Part shown: in pieces, positions 26,842 through 53,670 of the stretch
Layout of the letters: the number at the start of each line of letters is the position of its first letter
Numbering within the stretch: the first letter of the stretch is position 1
Source: Thiohalophilus sp.
GTDB lineage: Bacteria > Pseudomonadota > Gammaproteobacteria > UBA6429 > Thiohalophilaceae
Assembly (NCBI RefSeq): GCF_034521165.1
Contig: NZ_JAXHMV010000002.1
Span: forward strand, 197,467-261,466
DNA length: 64,000 nt
Direction of reading: 5' to 3'
Notes under the pieces: model-generated
Database searches by the model: none
What the model was told of the DNA's origin: nothing
The model's input: the letters and a program-made list of their open reading frames with translations, nothing else
Translations under genes and position numbers: made by a program

Positions 26842-27019
26842 GGAAACAACGCAAAGAACGCAAAGGCGCAGAGTTCGCAAAGGACAAGAATAAAAATCAA
26901 GTTGCGTAAATTTTTTCAAAACGTTTGTATTGCAATAAACCCAGGCCACCTGTCCGATTGCTTCACAACAATAATTTATTCCTTTGTGTTCTTTGCGTCT
27001 CTGCGTCCTCCGCGTTTCC
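26842..27019. repeat. palindromic low-complexity intergenic element, copy D
   Basis: The arms are GGAAACAACGCAAAGAACGCAAAGGCGCAGAGTTCGCAAAGG / CCTTTGTGTTCTTTGCGTCTCTGCGTCCTCCGCGTTTCC, around a ~90-nt AT-rich core. Confidence 0.6.
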
Positions 27020-27324: not shown

Positions 27325-28079
27325 GGCAGTTCGATGCTGGCGGTTTGCCCGACCCGGTAACGCTGGTCTTCCAGCGGGAAGCTGACCGCCACGGCATACC
27401 GTTCCGTGCCCTCGACCGGTTCCAGGCCGATACTCTTGATTTGGCCGGTATGCCGGCGACCCGCGATGTTCACCGCCGCTTCCTGACCCACTTCGAGGGA
27501 GCGAGTCTGTGCTTCGGTGAGTTCGGCACGGGCAACCATGGAATTGGCATCGGCCACGGTAACCAGTGTCAGCGGTTGCAGATCATTGATCACTGTCTGA
27601 CCCTGTTCGGCAAAGACGCTGATCACCAGGGCATCAAACGGAGAACGCACCGCGCTGTATTCCAGGTTCAACCGGGCCTGCACCAGTGCCGCGCGGGCCG
27701 CGGCATAATCCGCCTCGGCCTGCTTGGCGTCGTTTAACGCCATTTGCAGCTCATGATCCGATAACACGGTACGGTCATACAGTTCCTCGGCGCGATCCCG
27801 CTCGCGGCGAGCTTCCGCGCGCACGGCCTTGAGACTCTCCAGTCGGCTACGGGCCTTGCTCACATCGGCCCTGAAGCCCCGATCGTCCAGTTGCACCAGC
27901 ACGGCACCGGCCTTCACCCGTTGCCCGGCCTGCGCGGTCACCTCGCTGATCACGCCCTGTACCGGCGTGCCCAGTTCAACGCGCCGCTCCCATTCCAGCC
28001 GGGCATCGTACTCGGCTGCTGCAGCGTGGCCGCTGAGCAGCAATAACGTCGCCGCCACGAATTTAATTTGCCTGTTCAT
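27321..28079 (-). CDS. short periplasmic adaptor (HlyD/membrane-fusion protein family)
   Basis: A signal peptide (start reassigned to [22 protein letters not shown]) is followed by a lipoyl-like beta-hybrid, an alpha-hairpin coiled coil and a beta-barrel. The protein is only ~252 aa, so the membrane-proximal domain seems absent. Confidence 0.78.
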
Positions 28080-29430
28080 TGCTCTCTTCCTTTTGCGTCG
28101 TATTCTGCGGAGGCACAAAGGGTTGTTCGACATCCAGCCGGCCCAGCAAGGCATTCAGCCGAGCCCAGGCCAGGGCGGTCTCATAATCGCTTTCGGCGGT
28201 GTTCCGTTCCGCTTCGGTATAACGCACCATGGAATCACCCAGATCCGCTCTGACTTCCAGCTCGTAAAGAGCACGACTGCGATCCAGATAAAGTTCGCGA
28301 TAACGTTTTTCGCTCTGGCGCTGCTCGCGTCGGGCCTTGAGCGAATCCAGTTGCAACCACAGCTCCAGCACCTGCTGGCGGACATCGCGTTCCGCCCGTG
28401 TCAGCATCGCCCGCGTTTCGAACAGGCGAGCCTTTTCGCGCGCCACGCCGGCATCGGTACGGCTGCCATCGTACAGCGGGATAGTCACTTGCAGTTCGGC
28501 ACGAAAATCGTCGTAACTGTTGCGCTCCCGGGAATAGGCGCCGGCCTGCAACTTGCCACTGACAGTCGGATTATCACCAGCGCGGGCCCCTTCGACCCGC
28601 GCGTGCGCGGCTTCAAGCCGTTCCCGCAGCGATTTCACCACCGGGTTTTCCTGCAGTGCCAGCGCTTGCAGCTGTTCCACTTCCGGCAGCTCCCGTTCGA
28701 TGTCCGGCAAGGCAGGGGGGACCACATTGCGGGGTAACTGGCCGGGCCGGTTCAGTGCCTGCGCCAGTCGGGCCCGGGTCTCACGCTGGCGGTTCTGGGC
28801 CCGGGAACGCCGGTAACGGGAACGCTGAAAAACCGCTTCCTGCTCCAGCAGTTCCAGATCGGAGATTTGCTTGAGCTCGTGCCGATCGCGCAACTTGTCC
28901 AGCTCGACAAACTCGACCGCCATCTCCTCGTTATAGCGGTAGTACTGCAAGTCGGCCAGCACCACATCAAAATAGCGCTGCATGATCGCCAGGCGCCGTT
29001 GCTGGCGCGTGTTGACGCGCAGAAGTTTGTGACTGTCGAGTTGTCGGGCTGCGGCAGCACTGGCCGAGCGGGTTCGACCGAAGTCGTAGAGCGTTTTATC
29101 GACATTCAGCAACAGGCGATGATCATCGTTACTTTGATTGAAGGCGTAATCGGGCGGTTCCACATGGGCCAGCGCGCCATCGACATAGACATCCAGATCG
29201 TCCCCGGCACGGGCTCCCTGCAGTTCCGCCTCGGCCACCTGGATGCGCGCCTCCGCGATTTGCAGATCGGGATGCGGTTCATCGGCCAGCGCCAGGGCCT
29301 TGTCGAGCGTCAGCGGCTCCGGCAACGGTTCGGGTTTTTCATCGCTCTGCTGCGCATAACCGCTCGTCATGCCCAACAGCAGCAGGCCGCACAACCAGGC
29401 GTGCGGGCGAAACACGATTGCTCGATTCAT
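28063..29430 (-). CDS. TolC family outer-membrane efflux protein
   Basis: The 455-aa product has a signal peptide and two OEP-type coiled-coil/barrel repeats. Its end overlaps the MFP start by 17 nt. Confidence 0.85.
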   Translation of the reverse strand: MNRAIVFRPHAWLCGLLLLGMTSGYAQQSDEKPEPLPEPLTLDKALALADEPHPDLQIAEARIQVAEAELQGARAGDDLDVYVDGALAHVEPPDYAFNQSNDDHRLLLNVDKTLYDFGRTRSASAAAARQLDSHKLLRVNTRQQRRLAIMQRYFDVVLADLQYYRYNEEMAVEFVELDKLRDRHELKQISDLELLEQEAVFQRSRYRRSRAQNRQRETRARLAQALNRPGQLPRNVVPPALPDIERELPEVEQLQALALQENPVVKSLRERLEAAHARVEGARAGDNPTVSGKLQAGAYSRERNSYDDFRAELQVTIPLYDGSRTDAGVAREKARLFETRAMLTRAERDVRQQVLELWLQLDSLKARREQRQSEKRYRELYLDRSRALYELEVRADLGDSMVRYTEAERNTAESDYETALAWARLNALLGRLDVEQPFVPPQNTTQKEESNEQAN

Positions 29431-29439
29431 GTCGTAAGA

Positions 29440-29970
29440 TTATTCTTTTCGTTTTTCACGTTTGTAACGGGTAAACGACATATCCTTGTAGATTCCGTTG
29501 GCAACGTATTCACCCATCCACATAAATTCTTCCACGCCGGACGTCTTGCCGGTATGCCGGTGTATCCGCTCGCCTTCGAGATTATAGAAAGCAAAGACCG
29601 GCGTGGCCCGCACGCGATTTTCCTTGAACGCGAAATCCTTCTGCTTTTTCTGTTCGCCCTGCAGGTTGGTAATCTCGACATCCCCTTCGATATCCACGGA
29701 GAAGTTCAGAAAATGCTCACGATAGTATTCCTGGACTTTCTGACGATTGAGGACGTTTTCCTTCATGTAGTGGCAAAAGGGGCACTCGTCCATCTCAAAA
29801 AAGATAAGTACGCCTTTTTTACCCTGCTCCCGGGCATTTTCCAGCTCTTCCTGATAATCGCCCCAGGTTTCATGGAAAAAATGCTTATAGGGATCGCGGG
29901 TTTCCGCGGCCAGCGTCGCCGTACCCAGCGCCAGCAGCAATACGAAAATAGAGCCAAACAGTTTACGCAT
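29440..29970 (-). CDS. periplasmic thioredoxin-fold protein (CPFC motif)
   Basis: A signal peptide is present. The redox motif ECPFCH lies in a thioredoxin-like context (VLIFFEMDECPFCHYM). Confidence 0.75.
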   Translation of the reverse strand: MRKLFGSIFVLLLALGTATLAAETRDPYKHFFHETWGDYQEELENAREQGKKGVLIFFEMDECPFCHYMKENVLNRQKVQEYYREHFLNFSVDIEGDVEITNLQGEQKKQKDFAFKENRVRATPVFAFYNLEGERIHRHTGKTSGVEEFMWMGEYVANGIYKDMSFTRYKREKRKE

Positions 29971-30253
29971 GAATCACACCATTATGTTTGAAATGCCACA
30001 TCAGTCTGTGACCGTCACAAAACGAAAAAATTCCCGCCAGATAGCAGGGTTGACCGGCTCGGCTATTCTACCGCGTTTCCCCGGCTTTTAAACCCGTTAC
30101 CCTCATCGGATCCACCGCCAGATCGAGCGGCGGCAAATTTTAACACAGCCCTCACAATCGGGCCCGGGAACAGCAACCAGCCGGGCAGTGCGCAGCGAGG
30201 AACCCGTGCAAGAGGGGAAGAACCTGAAAAAGGGGAGAAGAAGAGCAGACAAC

Positions 30254-40107: not shown

Positions 40108-40278
40108 GGAACAAACGCAAAGAACGCAAAGGCGCCAAGGACGCAAAGAATGGGAGTAAGGACGGAATCCAAAATTGAACAAGGCGGGTTGATTGCGAAC
40201 ATCACCAGAAGTGAGGCCGCTGTTGACAGAAAACACTGAACTTTGCGTCCTCCGCGCCTTTGCGTTCTTTGCGTTATT
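40108..40278. repeat. palindromic low-complexity intergenic element, copy F1
   Basis: The arms are GGAACAAACGCAAAGAACGCAAAGGCGCCAAGGACGCAAAG / CTTTGCGTCCTCCGCGCCTTTGCGTTCTTTGCGTT, around a ~95-nt core. Confidence 0.6.
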
Positions 40279-49049: not shown

Positions 49050-49098
49050 TGGGCAGGAGGCAAGCGAATGACTTTCTCCTTTCAACGTACTGGAAATT

Positions 49099-49253
49099 AC
49101 GCCAAGAACGCCAAGGCGCAGAGAACGCAAAGGAACTGAATTTATTTTTACCATATCTTCTATTTGATTAGGCAATTTCAAAATCAATGAGCCTTGGCAA
49201 CATAAATACATTAATAATAACTTTGCGTTCTTGGCGACTTTGCGACCTTTGCA
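49099..49253. repeat. palindromic low-complexity intergenic element, copy H
   Basis: The arms are ACGCCAAGAACGCCAAGGCGCAGAGAACGCAAAGG / CTTTGCGTTCTTGGCGACTTTGCGACCTTTGCA, around an AT-rich ~85-nt core. Confidence 0.6.
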
Positions 49254-49307: not shown

Positions 49308-49943
49308 ATGAACCCCGAGAAGCGACGTGAGATTTTCAAGCGGCTGAAAAAAGCAAATCCGCACCCCACTACCGAGCTGAACTACCGCACGCCGTTTGAA
49401 CTATTGATTGCGGTGATTCTCTCGGCGCAGGCCACGGACAAGGGGGTTAACAAGGCCACCAGAGAGTTGTTCAAGGTCGCCCGAAGCCCGAAAAAGATCC
49501 TGGAGCTCGGCGAATCCGGGCTGAAGGAACACATCAAGAGCATCGGGCTGTTCAACAGCAAGGCCAAAAATATCATCAAGACCTGCCAGATCCTGGTCGA
49601 GCAGCACGCTGGCAAGGTCCCCGAGGATCGGGCCGCGCTGGAGGCCTTGCCCGGGGTCGGGCGCAAGACCGCCAACGTGATTCTCAATACGGCCTTCGGC
49701 CACCCCACTATCGCCGTGGACACCCATATCTTCCGGGTCAGTAATCGCACCGGCCTGGCGCCGGGCAAGACCGTGCTGGAGGTGGAGAAAAAACTGCTCA
49801 AGATGGTCCCCGAGGAATACAAAAAAGACGCCCATCACTGGCTCATCCTGCACGGGCGCTACATCTGCGTGGCCCGTACACCGCGCTGCGGGGCCTGTGT
49901 CATCGAGGACCTGTGCGAGTACAAAGACAAGACCGCCGACTGA
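49308..49943 (+). CDS. nth: endonuclease III
   Basis: The HhH-GPD motif LPGVGRKTANV and the 4Fe-4S cluster loop CVARTPRCGACVIEDLC are present. The gene follows rnfE, as in E. coli. Confidence 0.95.
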   Translation: MNPEKRREIFKRLKKANPHPTTELNYRTPFELLIAVILSAQATDKGVNKATRELFKVARSPKKILELGESGLKEHIKSIGLFNSKAKNIIKTCQILVEQHAGKVPEDRAALEALPGVGRKTANVILNTAFGHPTIAVDTHIFRVSNRTGLAPGKTVLEVEKKLLKMVPEEYKKDAHHWLILHGRYICVARTPRCGACVIEDLCEYKDKTAD

Positions 49944-49963
49944 TTCCTTTTTTTATGACTGGT

Positions 49964-50131
49964 GGAATAAACGCCAAGAACGCAAAGACGCCAAGGGCGC
50001 TAAGAAAATAAGTATTTACAGACCGTCTCGAGCGCAAATCAATTCAGGTAGTACTCAACGTTGAACCGGAAAAATAAAATAATTTAACTCTCTTTGCGTT
50101 CTCTGCGTCTTCGCGTTCTTGGCGTTATTCC
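49964..50131. repeat. palindromic low-complexity intergenic element, copy I
   Basis: The arms are GGAATAAACGCCAAGAACGCAAAGACGCCAAGGGCGCTAAG / CTCTTTGCGTTCTCTGCGTCTTCGCGTTCTTGGCGTTATTCC, roughly 85 percent complementary by eye. Confidence 0.65.
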
Positions 50132-50332
50132 CAGCAGCCGGTGAGCAAGCCCCGGCAAAGATAGAATATTAGCAGAAACTTATATAGAGGCCCGGACCAG
50201 GAACCATTGGGTCCTGACAGGGTCACAATTCAGGAATGGCGTGGTTTTTTTATATCATTTCTGTTGTAAGGTTGAGCGCGATACCACGACTAAATAACTA
50301 ACCAACAATGACACACATGGAGAATGCAGATT

Positions 50333-50701
50333 ATGTCTAACCGTAAATCATCGAAAACCCTGACGCTTGCCCTGGGTACGGCCTTTGCCGCCAGCATGGC
50401 CGCCAGCAACGTCGCCACAGCGGCCGAAGCCGGCAGCAACCCCTTCGCCATGAGCGAGCTGTCCAGCGGCTATATGCAGCTGGCCGACAGCCATATGGAA
50501 GGCAAATGTGGTGAAGGCAAGTGCGGCGGCGACAAGGACAAAGCCAAGAAAGAAGGCAAGTGTGGCGAAGGTAAATGCGGCGGCGACAAGGACAAAGCCA
50601 AGAAAGAAGGCAAGTGCGGCGAAGGTAAATGCGGCGGCGACAAGGCCAAAGCCAAGAAGGAAGGCAAGTGCGGCGAAGGTAAATGCGGCGGCAGCAAGTA
50701 A
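50333..50701 (+). CDS. hvfA: secreted Cys-repeat RiPP precursor (HvfA-like, eight EGKCG motifs)
   Basis: A GGAGA RBS lies 9 nt before the second ATG (50333); the ORF is open from 50324. It has a Sec-type signal peptide (MSNRKSSK + TLTLALGTAFAASMAAS + NVATAAEA) and a short segment SNPFAMSELSSGYMQLA. These are followed by 4 x (EGKCGEGKCGG + DKDKAKK-type spacer). All 8 Cys residues lie in an EGKCG context. Confidence 0.85.
   Translation: MSNRKSSKTLTLALGTAFAASMAASNVATAAEAGSNPFAMSELSSGYMQLADSHMEGKCGEGKCGGDKDKAKKEGKCGEGKCGGDKDKAKKEGKCGEGKCGGDKAKAKKEGKCGEGKCGGSK
50498..50698 (+). repeat. 3.7 tandem copies of a 54-bp coding repeat inside the precursor gene
   Basis: The units start at 50498, 50552, 50606 and 50660. 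Neighbouring units differ at only 3-4 positions, mostly synonymous third positions. Confidence 0.9.
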
Positions 50702-50719
50702 GCGGCCAAAGGAACTGAC

Positions 50720-51577
50720 ATGAACACGACAAGCTATCCTGTTCATGGCGCCGGACTGGGTCTGCGGCGGTCCATTATGGAACCGCTCGCGGACCCGTTT
50801 CCTTCGCAGGTCGATTTCATGGAAATCGCCCCGGAAAACTGGATCGGCGTCGGCGGCAGTTACGGCCGCAAGTTACGCGCGTTTACCGAACGCTATCCCT
50901 TTGTGACCCACGGCCTGTCCCTGTCGCTGGGCAGTCCCGCACCGCTGGACGAGGCCTTTTTACAACGCCTCAAACGGTTTCTCAAACAACACAATATTCG
51001 CATTTACACCGAACATCTGAGCTATTGTAGCGACGATGGACATCTTTATGATCTGATGCCGATTCCGTTTACCGAGGAAGCCGTGCATCATGTTGCCGGG
51101 CGTATCCGCCGCGTGCAGGATATCCTGGAGCAGCCGATCGCCGTGGAGAATGTCTCTTACTATGCCGCCCCGGGCAAACAGATGGAAGAAATCGAATTCA
51201 TCAATGCGGTGCTCGAAGAAGCCGACTGCCGGCTGTTGCTGGATGTGAATAATATTTACGTCAACAGCGTCAATCACCGCTATGACGCGGAACAATTCCT
51301 GCGTGCACTCCCTGCCGAACGTATCAGCTATATCCATGTTGCCGGGCACTACAATGAAGCCGAGGATCTGATCGTCGACACCCATGGCGCCCCGGTGATC
51401 GATCCGGTCTGGGAGTTGTTGAAAAAGACCTATCAGCATTTTGGCGTAATCCCGACCATGCTGGAGCGGGATTTTAACCTGCCGCCGATCGAGGAACTGC
51501 TGGACGAGGTTGACACCATCAGCGCCCTGCAACAGCAGGCCCGGCCGCAACAGGCGTTGCATGAGCAATCGAACTGA
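50720..51577 (+). CDS. hvfB: DUF692 / MNIO (multinuclear non-heme iron oxidative) RiPP maturase
   Basis: The 285-aa product has a typical DUF692 TIM-barrel motif series: [69 protein letters not shown]. It starts 18 nt after the precursor stop, with an AAGGAA RBS. Confidence 0.9.
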
Positions 51578-52355
51578 GATGACGGATTTTCAACAACAGC
51601 AATATCGCTTTGCGGCGCACATCCGCGATCCGCAGGCCAGCCCGGCCCCGGCCGATGTCGAGGATCGGCGCATGGCCATTTACCGGGAGCTGTTTTACAA
51701 CAATGTCGAAGGCTTCATGGCCGACAGTTTCCCCGTCCTGCGCCAGCTACTGAATGATGAAAAATGGCATCGGCTGATTCGCCACTATTTTGCCAGTCAC
51801 AGGGCCACCACCCCGCTGTTTCCGGAAATGCCCCGGGAGTTCCTGCATTACCTGGAGCACGAACGGACCGCCGAAGCTGACGACCCGCCGTTCATGTTCG
51901 AGCTTGCCCATTACGAGTGGGTCGAGCTGGCACTGAGCCTCTCCGATCAGGAGCCGGACTGGCCCCGAATCGATACCCAGGGCGATCTGCTCAAAGGCCG
52001 GCCGCAGCTTTCCCCCCTGGCCTGGCCGCTCAGCTATCACTACCCTGTCCATCTGATTGGCCCCGATTTTCGTCCCGACCAGCCCTCCGAGCAGCCGACC
52101 TGGTTGCTGGTCTACCGCGATGCGCGCGATGAGATCACCTTCATGGAACTCAACCCGGTCACCGCCCGGCTGTTGCAGCTGATCGACAACAGCGAACATG
52201 CCACCGGCGAGGCGATGCTCGAGCAGATTGCCGCGGAACTCAATCACCCCGATCCCGCGGTGGTCATCGAGGGCGGGCAGCAAATTCTGAACGATCTGCA
52301 CCAGCGCGGTGTCATACCCGGTATCCGGTTACCCGGTCATTCACCGGCCAGCTAA
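51561..52355 (+). CDS. hvfC: DUF2063 partner protein (HvfC/BufC/MbnC-type peptide-recognition chaperone)
   Basis: DUF2063 hallmarks [31 protein letters not shown] and ELAHYEW are present. The start at 51561 overlaps the MNIO gene by 17 nt; an alternative ATG at 51579 lies 2 nt after its stop. Confidence 0.85.
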
Positions 52356-52390
52356 CCGTTTTTCTTTCCAGATCTCCTCCTGTGGTCTGC

Positions 52391-52422
52391 AGCCGGCCAA
52401 TGTTGGGCCGGCTTTTCTTTTT
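52391..52422 (+). terminator. rho-independent terminator of the precursor-MNIO-DUF2063 operon
   Basis: The stem AGCCGGCC / GGCCGGCT with loop AATGTTG is followed by TTTTCTTTTT. It lies 36 nt after the DUF2063 stop. Confidence 0.65.
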
Positions 52423-52662
52423 GTCCGGACGCCGGTCACGCTTTGGGTGCTATAACTCACTGACATTAATGGTATAATACGGTCTGAATACGCCGCTCGG
52501 CGCACCCGTAAGTCTGGCGCGACTGTACCTGCCCGGCCGGCTGTAATACACTGCAACGGCCCCCGAAGAGGGGGTTGGGCCGCTATCTGGTACCAGAATC
52601 CGTTTCGGACACCGCATCCACCACCATGTCGGCCGTAAGCTGACAGTTGAACGACGTTTACT

Positions 52663-53670
52663 ATGAAAATTTCCGCCTCGATTTATTCCAACAAGCACAA
52701 GACACTGAAGGACATCGTTACCGATCTGGACGCGCACGGGACGGACTTATTTCATATCGACTGCAACGACGACCCTTCGGTTTTCGAGGACATTGCCCGG
52801 ATCCGGCAACTGAGCCGTACGCCCATCGATCTGCACATCATTACCCCGACACCCGGCAAATATTACGATCTGATTGCAAAACACGAGATCCACGCCGTTT
52901 GTTTCCAGTATGAAAATCTTCAGGAACCCCTCGCGATACCGGAAACGATTAGTGCCCGAACCGGCCTGGCCATCAGTTCCAGCACCGATATTGATGCCTT
53001 TGCACCCTACGCGGAACAACTTGATTTCGTACTGATCATGGCCACCACGCCGGGCAAGAGCGGCGGCACTTTCGACAAACACAATTTCCGCAAGATACGC
53101 CAGTTCCGCCAGCGGTTTCCACAAACCCGGATTCACGTCGATGGCGGGGTGAATCACGAAGTCTCATTCATCCTGCGCAACATGGGCGTGTATGCCGCCG
53201 TTTCAGGTTCTTACCTGATGAACAGCGACTCCATCGGCGCAGCGATGCTGAATCTCAAGACCCATGACATCGGCTCGCACTATCTGGTCGGGGATTTCAT
53301 GCGCCAGCTGGATGAGACGCCACTATTGCGCCCCGATGAATTGAGTGTGCGCAATATCCTGCAATCTATTGAGGACAACAAGCTCGGATTTACCCTGGTG
53401 GCCGACGAGAGTGATGTATTGCTCGGCATGATCACCAATGCCGATGTGCGCAAAGGGCTACTGAAACACATCGACAATCTCAATGCCCTGGAAGTCGCGG
53501 ACATGATCAACCCGTCGCCCGCTGCCGCGCGCGAGGATTTTACCGTGCAGGAACTGCTGGCCTATATTCAGGAGCAGACGTTCCCCGTCAATTATTTACC
53601 CGTCGTCAATAGCAAGCATGAGGTGACCGGTTCAGTCACATTCATGAATCTCGTTAAAGGTGAAGTATGA
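52663..53670 (+). CDS. ribulose-phosphate-3-epimerase-fold domain fused to a CBS-domain pair
   Basis: Residues 1-210 follow the RPE barrel pattern: SASIYS, FHIDCND, IDLHII, LIMATTPGKSGGTFD, IHVDGGVN, AAVSGSYL. The His/Asp metal ligands are retained. Residues ~215-335 are two CBS motifs (GMITNADVRKGL, VTGSVTFMNLVKG). Confidence 0.7.
   Translation: MKISASIYSNKHKTLKDIVTDLDAHGTDLFHIDCNDDPSVFEDIARIRQLSRTPIDLHIITPTPGKYYDLIAKHEIHAVCFQYENLQEPLAIPETISARTGLAISSSTDIDAFAPYAEQLDFVLIMATTPGKSGGTFDKHNFRKIRQFRQRFPQTRIHVDGGVNHEVSFILRNMGVYAAVSGSYLMNSDSIGAAMLNLKTHDIGSHYLVGDFMRQLDETPLLRPDELSVRNILQSIEDNKLGFTLVADESDVLLGMITNADVRKGLLKHIDNLNALEVADMINPSPAAAREDFTVQELLAYIQEQTFPVNYLPVVNSKHEVTGSVTFMNLVKGEV

Follow-up and report, generated by a model that had tools for sequence, protein, structure and literature searches.

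Introduction

The HvfABC system of nontypeable Haemophilus influenzae, which makes oxazolin from the precursor HvfA, was characterized in 2024, and its operon holds a fourth gene encoding a DoxX protein, HvfX (PMC11252979). HvfA has a Sec signal peptide and receives six modifications of -4 Da on its AEGKCGEGKCG repeats; the modification is independent of the signal peptide and occurs in the cytoplasm of Escherichia coli, and an N-terminal cysteine pair, C38/C43, aids full modification (PMC11252979). Approximately one Cu(I) per pair is bound by modified HvfA, and 2–3 Cu(I) are likewise bound by the unmodified protein (PMC11252979). Here, we analyzed a three-gene operon on the plus strand of a 64,000-nt stretch of DNA from Thiohalophilus sp. 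(contig NZ_JAXHMV010000002.1, positions 197,467 to 261,466; hereafter the window, in which positions are counted from its first letter). By the sequences of its products, the operon almost certainly belongs to the HvfABC/EGKCG family.

Oxazolin, together with fontiphorin and gonophorin, has been shown by two groups to contain 5-thiooxazoles and not oxazolone/thioamide pairs (PMC12668002; bioRxiv 10.64898/2026.06.05.730506). HvfB, a multinuclear non-heme iron oxidative enzyme (MNIO), has a mixed-valent di-iron center as its active cofactor, and its residues N175, D242, and H244 are essential (bioRxiv 10.64898/2026.07.17.739211). More than 3,000 HvfA homologs have been found (PMC11252979). A separate catalog lists ~2,000 "Buf_EGKCG/oxazolin" precursors, with clusters that combine genes for a ribosomally made and post-translationally modified peptide (RiPP), MNIO, DUF2063, and DoxX proteins in various ways (PMC12452194). 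Among free-living bacteria, the mmrABC cluster of Microbulbifer consists of three genes, and its precursors have 5–8 EGKCG cysteines that carry thiooxazoles and bind Cu(I) (PMC12538549). The bufferins, which derive from other precursors, guard against copper stress in vivo (PMC11626156).

Results

The hvfABC operon of Thiohalophilus

Three open reading frames (ORFs) were found on the plus strand, and the three-gene layout of the original prediction, with its 18-nt gap, its 17-nt overlap, and its terminator, was reproduced position by position. The precursor gene (50333..50701; ATG at 50333, stop at 50701) encodes 122 aa and is preceded by GGAGA, located 9 nt upstream of the ATG. The second gene, hvfB (50720..51577, 285 aa), starts 18 nt past the precursor stop, and the third, hvfC (51561..52355, 264 aa), starts 17 nt inside the end of hvfB. 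An alternative in-frame ATG of hvfC is located at 51579, and RefSeq keeps the 264-aa form. The overlap suggests translational coupling, fitting an enzyme pair. The operon ends in an intrinsic terminator (52391..52423), in which a hairpin with a stem at 52391-52413 (8 pairs, 7 of them G-C, and a 7-nt loop) is followed by TTTCTTTTTG.

The precursor begins with a predicted Sec signal peptide (aa 1-30, 50333-50422), judged by eye from the basic residues R4, K5, and K8, a hydrophobic core, and a subsequent ATA|AE site. A conserved docking-type motif, SNPFAMSELSSGYMQLA (aa 35-51, 50435-50485), separates it from the core (aa 56-120, 50498-50692), which contains eight EGKCG motifs. All eight cysteines of the protein (C59, C64, C77, C82, C95, C100, C113, and C118) lie within EGKCG, in agreement with what had been read from the DNA at the outset. 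Tandem Repeats Finder returned a 54-bp period at 50498-50692, with 3.6 copies, 95% matches, and a score of 334, and this period encodes the 18-aa unit EGKCGEGKCGGDKDKAKK. The repeat array far exceeds chance. No Pfam domain was matched in the precursor, and the NCBIfam domain model NF050137 (KCGExKCG_twice) scored 87.2 bits against a cut-off of 19.5. Minus-strand ORFs run across the precursor (e.g., 50348-50746), and these are probably mirror ORFs of the G+C-rich repeat. At least 583 related loci are present in the species-representative genome set, and our comparisons cover the best 80 of them; among the window and these 80 loci, the plus-strand reading of the precursor was conserved in 62 of 81 sequences.

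Both maturation proteins were assigned with curated models. The second gene product, predicted to be a DUF692/MNIO protein, matched Pfam PF05114 (MbnB_TglH_ChrH, formerly DUF692) across the full profile (1.4e-109) and the NCBIfam HvfB family model NF003818 with 455 bits (cut-off, 360). Its scores were below the cut-offs for BufB (NF050167; 278 bits against 310) and MbnB (TIGR04159; 41 bits against 325). The nearest solved structure was that of a Histophilus somni MNIO (PDB 3BWW; 1.7e-79), to which all MNIO metal-site motifs, including LERDF, could be aligned. The LDVNN and VDTH motifs would correspond to the essential HvfB residues N175, D242, and H244, the numbering being placed on the Thiohalophilus enzyme by motif and not by structural superposition. 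The third gene product, for which DUF2063 had been proposed, consists of a DUF2063 N-domain (PF09836; 1.6e-26) and an NGO1945_C/RRE-like C-domain (PF22106, 8.4e-36; PqqD-like RRE model, a weak match at 0.0025). It scored 339 bits with the HvfC model NF050145 (cut-off, 142), and its nearest solved structure was NGO1945 (PDB 3DEE; 2.3e-14), a Neisseria protein of PME type 1 (PME1). We refer to it as the HvfC-family partner of PME type 1. Both profile matches that the original call demanded, DUF692/MNIO and DUF2063, were obtained.

An exact-sequence look-up showed that all three proteins are public as proteins of Thiohalophilus sp. In UniRef and RefSeq, they are named "HvfA family oxazolone/thioamide-modified RiPP metallophore" (WP_322567030.1), "HvfB family MNIO-type RiPP peptide maturase" (WP_322567031.1), and "HvfC family RiPP maturation protein" (WP_322567032.1), and GenBank labels the third product "DNA-binding domain-containing protein." The call of an HvfABC-type family was thus correct, although RefSeq already names the proteins in this way. 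The operon is a known and annotated HvfABC system and is not novel.

Comparison with described systems

With the oxazolin system of H. influenzae (HvfA/B/C/X; PMC11252979), the Thiohalophilus operon shares a Sec-signal precursor, paired EGKCGEGKCG sequences, an MNIO of the HvfB type, an HvfC with DUF2063 and RRE parts, and the gene order A-B-C. By analogy, a loss of 4 Da per cysteine, 5-thiooxazole formation, and Cu(I) binding would be expected. The precursor offers eight modifiable cysteines in four 18-aa units, compared with six in the three units of HvfA. It differs from its H. influenzae counterpart in lacking the C38/C43 disulfide pair and in scoring below the HvfA equivalog cut-off, and the operon contains no DoxX (HvfX) gene. 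The hosts also differ: Thiohalophilus is a free-living halophilic sulfur oxidizer, whereas H. influenzae is a pathogen.

The MmrABC system of Microbulbifer, which produces bulbicupramide, is similar in several respects: it is a three-gene A-B-C cluster of a free-living marine gammaproteobacterium, with EGKCG precursors that have 5–8 cysteines, an N-terminal region that is conserved, and repeats that vary in number (PMC12538549). Thiooxazole was a tentative assignment for its product, which binds Cu(I). The genus and the sequences differ from those studied here, and expression was undetected in Microbulbifer cultures. FonABC of Fontimonas thermophila (fontiphorin) and NgoABC of Neisseria gonorrhoeae (gonophorin) also combine EGKCG precursors with an MNIO-PME1 heterodimer (PMC12668002). 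FonA has seven sites; 5-thiooxazole was proven for both systems by alkylation-assisted nuclear magnetic resonance, and the products bind copper. The Neisseria operon also holds genes for an extracytoplasmic function (ECF) sigma factor, a ZAS anti-sigma factor, and DoxX, none of which is linked to the operon of the window. The statement that functional data were lacking for free-living gammaproteobacteria does not stand, since FonABC (PMC12668002) and MmrABC (PMC12538549) have been expressed and their products bind Cu(I). As for the chemistry proposed for the locus, the predicted loss of 4 Da per cysteine is retained, and the oxazolone/thioamide groups are superseded by the 5-thiooxazole of oxazolin, fontiphorin, and gonophorin (PMC12668002; bioRxiv 10.64898/2026.06.05.730506).

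Bufferin systems (BufABC(D); PMC11626156, PMC12452194) have a closely related MNIO that falls in one sequence cluster with those of oxazolin systems, a PME1 partner, Sec export, and thiooxazole copper ligands in the product, and in Caulobacter an ECF (SigF) promoter drives their operons. Their precursors contain DUF2282 or Buf_6/12Cys domains and not EGKCG repeats. The Thiohalophilus enzyme scored below the BufB cut-off, and neither sigma nor NrsF genes were found nearby.

The precursor of methanobactin is a short leader-core peptide, and the system has dedicated export and uptake machinery. MbnABC has in common with the Thiohalophilus operon an enzyme of the MNIO superfamily, four-electron oxidation of cysteine, and a Cu(I)-binding product. 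It differs in its oxazolone/thioamide chemistry and in its enzyme, to which the low score under the MbnB model also points. MbnB and MovB are stated to be less closely related and to lack a PME1 (DUF2063-type) gene in their vicinity (PMC12668002), and the original listing of MbnC among the DUF2063 partners is inexact on this point.

Relatives and turnover of the repeat array

HvfB of the window was 96% identical to that of a Thiohalophilus metagenome-assembled genome and 87% identical to that of Thiohalophilus thiocyanatoxydans DSM 16326. The order precursor-MNIO-PME1 recurred among the best 80 related loci, and in 62 of the 81 sequences the precursor was located immediately 5' of the HvfB-HvfC pair. 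These 62 precursors have a signal peptide, the motif N-P-F-x-M-x-E-L-S-S-G-Y-M (NPF..GYM), and (E/D)GKCG repeats, and 90% of their cysteines sit in [ED]GKCG. The number of cysteines per precursor has a median of 7 (range, 2–17). With eight, the precursor of the window is, judged by these features, typical of related precursors.

The four repeat units of the window precursor were unusually uniform. In congeners with an 87–96% identical HvfB, the precursors had 5–7 cysteines in irregular units, and some cysteines were replaced by arginine. Because the units are uniform here and irregular in the congeners, the comparison points to a recent expansion or homogenization of the 54-bp repeat array.

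Other arrangements were seen among the related loci. Three precursors (L033 5569-5988, L039 168-602, and L040 5407-5979) contain an EF-hand-like insert (DADGDGKVTKDEF...DKNADG) between EGKCG blocks, which resembles the Buf_EGKCG/EF-hand chimeras (PMC12452194) but is placed inside the repeat array. In L047 (3636-4643), two tandem precursor genes, each with ~10 KCG motifs, precede one HvfB-HvfC pair. L040 lies on a contig titled "uncultured Halobacteria archaeon" (CAVYIJ010000003.1); it holds an hvfABC-doxX locus typical of gammaproteobacteria, with an HvfB that shares 73% identity with that of the window, and the contig is probably from a mis-binned or mis-labeled metagenome-assembled genome.

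Absence of linked DoxX and neighboring genes

A DoxX gene (PF07681) was detected by tblastn in 62 of the 80 related loci and is located 3' of hvfC in most relatives. By contrast, tblastn with 30 DoxX queries from related loci found none in the 64-kb window (best E, 0.28). DoxX was likewise absent within the 6-kb flanks of two further Thiohalophilus loci (L001 and L002; tblastn) and within 10 kb on either side of a third (L081), whose synteny, rnf-nth-hvfABC-epimerase, is identical to that of the window. Since linked DoxX is missing from all four Thiohalophilus genomes, the three-gene operon without it is, as far as these genomes represent the genus, a genus-wide trait. DoxX is known to be frequent and not universal, as the cluster genes occur "in various combinations" (PMC12452194).

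Upstream of hvfABC are rnfD/G/E-type genes and nth. The next gene past the terminator begins at 52663 and belongs to an unrelated sugar-nucleotide/lipopolysaccharide-type cluster; the downstream genes encode ribulose-phosphate-epimerase-like/CBS, DAHP-synthase-family (KDO-8-P-synthase-like), HAD phosphatase, heptosyltransferase-family, and cytidylyltransferase proteins, beyond which a PAS-GGDEF-EAL protein is encoded on the opposite strand. Pfam searches of five genes on each side detected no exporter, TonB-receptor, or metal-related family, including TonB-dependent receptors, MATE exporters, and periplasmic binding proteins. The absence of exporter, TonB receptor, and DoxX genes noted originally was thus upheld over this range.

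Palindromic intergenic elements of ~150-180 bp, of the miniature inverted-repeat transposable element or repetitive extragenic palindromic type, were observed at 26849-26998, 40115-40274, 49090-49252, and 49959-50137. They consist of imperfect ACGCCAAGAACGCNAAG units that are arranged in inverted orientation about a center rich in A+T, and this unit had 11 matches in the window compared with 0.07 expected by chance. Two of the copies flank nth, one of them lying between nth and the hvf promoter. At this place, L001 has a related insert, and L002 and L081 have none.

A candidate ECF-type promoter

When the 170 nt upstream of each precursor were listed, a bipartite motif was spotted, with a shared consensus of approximately GAAACTTT-N15/16-GTC(G/A)TA. 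In the window, it takes the form GGAACC-N16-GTCACA and defines a putative ECF-sigma-type promoter at 50200..50227 on the plus strand, with a -35 box at 50200-50205, a 16-nt spacer, and a -10 box at 50222-50227, ~105 nt upstream of the precursor ATG. Of 64 related loci, 30 had the pattern [GA]AAC[CT][TA]T-N13-16-GTC[AG][TCA]A located 84-155 nt 5' of the precursor ATG, compared with 6 matches on both strands of the remaining 1.3 Mb of sequence. The only match on either strand of the window was at 50200/50201. Because this pattern was made after the sequences had been seen, an independent weight matrix was built and trained solely on 26 sites from outside Thiohalophilus. The window site (AGGAACCAT...GGTCACAAT) ranked 4th of 127,934 window positions. 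Across the four Thiohalophilus genomes, both boxes were invariant and the spacer was variable, which in such an alignment is the pattern expected of a promoter.

An AAC-containing -35 box, a 16-nt spacer, and a (G)TC -10 box are of the ECF sigma type, and the site is likely a promoter of this class. The -35 element of E. coli sigmaE is quoted as GGAACTT, and Caulobacter SigF, which controls bufferin operons, recognizes GTAACC-N16-CGAA. The boxes GGAACC and GTCACA are distinct from the consensus of Neisseria ECF13 (GTMAGBWTT / CGTCTAAH). Control by an ECF sigma factor, suggested here for Thiohalophilus, has been shown for H. influenzae, in which four genes of the hvf/doxX cluster are induced by hypochlorite (HOCl) in strict dependence on the ECF sigma factor RpoE2, which also drives msrAB. 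In Neisseria, the hvf-type operon and msrAB both belong to the sigmaE regulon.

Searches for a cognate sigma factor and for other elements gave negative results. A phmmer search with an approximate sequence of E. coli RpoE against window ORFs of at least 60 aa gave no match at E<=1, and Pfam on small window proteins, a scan that was not exhaustive over the window, gave no ECF sigma factor. The three related loci in which an ECF sigma gene is nearby (L011, L025, and L076) had no convincing copy of the motif upstream of that gene. A sigma-70 promoter scan of 49900-52700 gave 0 sites, and Rfam at E<=1 gave just two sub-threshold matches, both on the terminator. The putative 5' untranslated region (50232-50340) folded no better than shuffled sequences (z = +1.0), and a CGTGGT...ACCACG inverted repeat showed no covariation. 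The stretch of ~100 nt from the putative -10 box to the ATG (50228-50332) is nearly invariant in the four Thiohalophilus genomes (e.g., GGCGTGGTTTTTTTAT..ATTTCTGTTGTAAGGTT), which is not explained by an Rfam family, a stable fold, or a sigma-70 promoter.

Three of the six background matches to the pattern were set aside, as they lie inside the 3' coding end of hvfC and by reading encode NHPDP. In L032 (7513), L049 (7546), and L050 (7519), the motif GAACCATCCTGACCC-N-GTCATA is located in the hvfC 3' end just before doxX. A motif at this place could be an internal doxX promoter or a coding coincidence.

The third-best matrix match in the window, GGGAATTTT-N14-GGTCACAGA, is on the minus strand at 30005-30035, ~40 nt 5' of a thioredoxin-like gene (29440-29970), which is followed by a TolC-like gene of the outer membrane efflux protein family (28063-29430). 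This site has the same GGTCACA -10 box as the hvf site. By analogy with msrAB and thioredoxin in Neisseria and Haemophilus, the thioredoxin-like locus may belong with the hvf operon to one ECF regulon.

Discussion

The locus is very probably an hvfABC operon of the EGKCG branch of MNIO-PME1 RiPP systems (the "captophorins" oxazolin, fontiphorin, gonophorin, and bulbicupramide) that works as follows. Transcription would start from the ECF-sigma-type promoter at 50200-50227 upon envelope, oxidative, or metal stress. The 122-aa precursor would be made in the cytoplasm, where HvfC, as in homologous systems, would dock it, probably via NPFAMSELSSGYM, and hand it over to HvfB. With O2 and a mixed-valent di-iron center, HvfB would subject each of the eight EGKCG cysteines to a four-electron oxidation to 5-thiooxazole; the products of homologs lead us to expect a mass change of -4 Da per cysteine, or -32 Da in total, and absorbance near 302-305 nm. 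The modified protein would then pass through Sec and be cut by signal peptidase I after approximately residue 30, giving a periplasmic or released Lys-rich peptide of ~92 aa. Its thiooxazole pairs would hold Cu(I) at ~4 high-affinity sites, which would buffer copper and might also give protection from copper-linked or oxidant stress. By analogy with the characterized members, it is probable that HvfBC turns the eight cysteines into 5-thiooxazoles in the cytoplasm and that the product leaves through Sec and binds Cu(I) at ~4 sites.

Several points weigh against this interpretation. With the HvfA equivalog model NF050188, the precursor scored 79.2 bits and failed the cut-off of 95. Because of this score, it is best classed as a member of the "HvfA family" only and not as an HvfA equivalog; the expectation that HvfA-family models would match was borne out for the repeat domain (87 against 19.5) and not for the equivalog (79 against 95). 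No N-terminal cysteine pair matching C38/C43 of H. influenzae HvfA is present. The promoter pattern was drawn up after the upstream sequences had been inspected. With the independent matrix, the training sites scored 18-28 bits, compared with 12.7 bits for the window site, which ranks no higher than 4th among the window positions, and no ECF sigma gene was found in the window. The mechanism is carried over from homologs. For the EGKCG family itself, the role is disputed among copper scavenging, copper buffering, and oxidative-stress defense (PMC11252979, PMC12668002, PMC12538549), and the mature product may or may not remain one polypeptide (PMC12668002).

The same products might serve mainly in defense against hypochlorite and oxidative stress within a small ECF stress regulon, with the heterocycle thiols acting as redox or oxidant scavengers. 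The induction of the H. influenzae hvf/doxX genes by HOCl with strict RpoE2 dependence, the co-driven msrAB, the presence of the Neisseria operon and msrAB in the sigmaE regulon, the ECF-type candidate promoter of the window operon, and the further matrix match upstream of the thioredoxin-like gene are all consistent with such a role. However, every characterized EGKCG product binds Cu(I) via its modified residues (PMC11252979, PMC12668002, PMC12538549), and bufferins shield cells from copper stress in vivo (PMC11626156). We regard a primarily oxidant-directed role as a genuine but lesser possibility. Copper and oxidative stress are linked, and the two roles are compatible; copper buffering and oxidant defense, as well as induction by an ECF sigma factor, are all possible for the physiology of the system.

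Other identities for the operon are very improbable. The shared superfamily (PF05114) and the first assignment of oxazolin to oxazolone/thioamide in 2024 (PMC11252979) would fit a methanobactin-type chalkophore, in which an MbnBC-like pair forms oxazolone/thioamide pairs on a small exported peptide that loads copper outside and is taken up again. This is hard to reconcile with the MbnB equivalog score, with a precursor that is a 122-aa Sec-signal protein and not a short MbnA-type leader-core peptide, with the lack of a TonB-dependent receptor, MATE exporter, or periplasmic binding protein in five genes per side, with the reassignment of oxazolin to 5-thiooxazole by two groups (PMC12668002; bioRxiv 10.64898/2026.06.05.730506), and with the stated absence of a DUF2063-type partner gene near that of MbnB (PMC12668002). 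A bufferin (BufABC) system in the strict sense is just as improbable. The BufB model gave a strong partial score of 278 bits, and bufferin- and oxazolin-linked MNIOs form one sequence cluster, both with PME1 partners and Sec-signal precursors (PMC12452194), but the enzyme remained under the BufB cut-off while clearing that of HvfB, the precursor has EGKCG repeat architecture in place of DUF2282 or another Pfam domain, and no sigma, NrsF, or DoxX genes are adjacent. Both assignments were dropped on the curated cut-offs (BufB, 278 against 310; MbnB, 41 against 325). Equally remote is the idea that the DUF2063 protein regulates transcription by binding DNA and that the Cys-repeat protein stays unmodified in the periplasm as a metallothionein-type protein. 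It would account for the GenBank label of the third product and for the binding of 2–3 Cu(I) by unmodified HvfA (PMC11252979), and DNA binding was proposed in the 2009 structure paper on NGO1945. Yet modification requires HvfC, FonC, and NgoC, each of which forms a complex with its MNIO (PMC12668002; bioRxiv 10.64898/2026.07.17.739211). Ternary ABC complexes have been detected by native mass spectrometry, and the 17 nt that hvfB and hvfC share suggest the translational coupling of an enzyme pair.

As an HvfABC system, the operon has small discovery value: the family has curated hidden Markov models, at least four biochemically characterized members, and ~2,000 to >3,000 catalogued precursor homologs, and the names are already in RefSeq. 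What is added here is a candidate promoter motif, a genus-wide lack of linked DoxX, and the fast turnover of the repeat units. In practical terms, the locus is a clean and compact three-gene example without DoxX, and its eight identical sites make it handy for heterologous expression.

The locus also shows that the DoxX gene of the operon can be missing across a genus. The conserved ECF-type motif provides a testable handle on how metallophores are switched in environmental bacteria, beyond Haemophilus, Neisseria, and Caulobacter. It is conceivable, though rather unlikely as a combined proposal, that the hvf operons of environmental gammaproteobacteria form an undescribed regulon with a shared ECF-type promoter and an unlinked sigma factor, that the Thiohalophilus system works without DoxX, and that the number of copper sites shifts fast by repeat expansion. 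If this were true, the operon would supply a sulfur-oxidizing chemolithotroph with a tunable periplasmic Cu(I)/oxidant buffer, with eight sites here and 5–7 in congeners.

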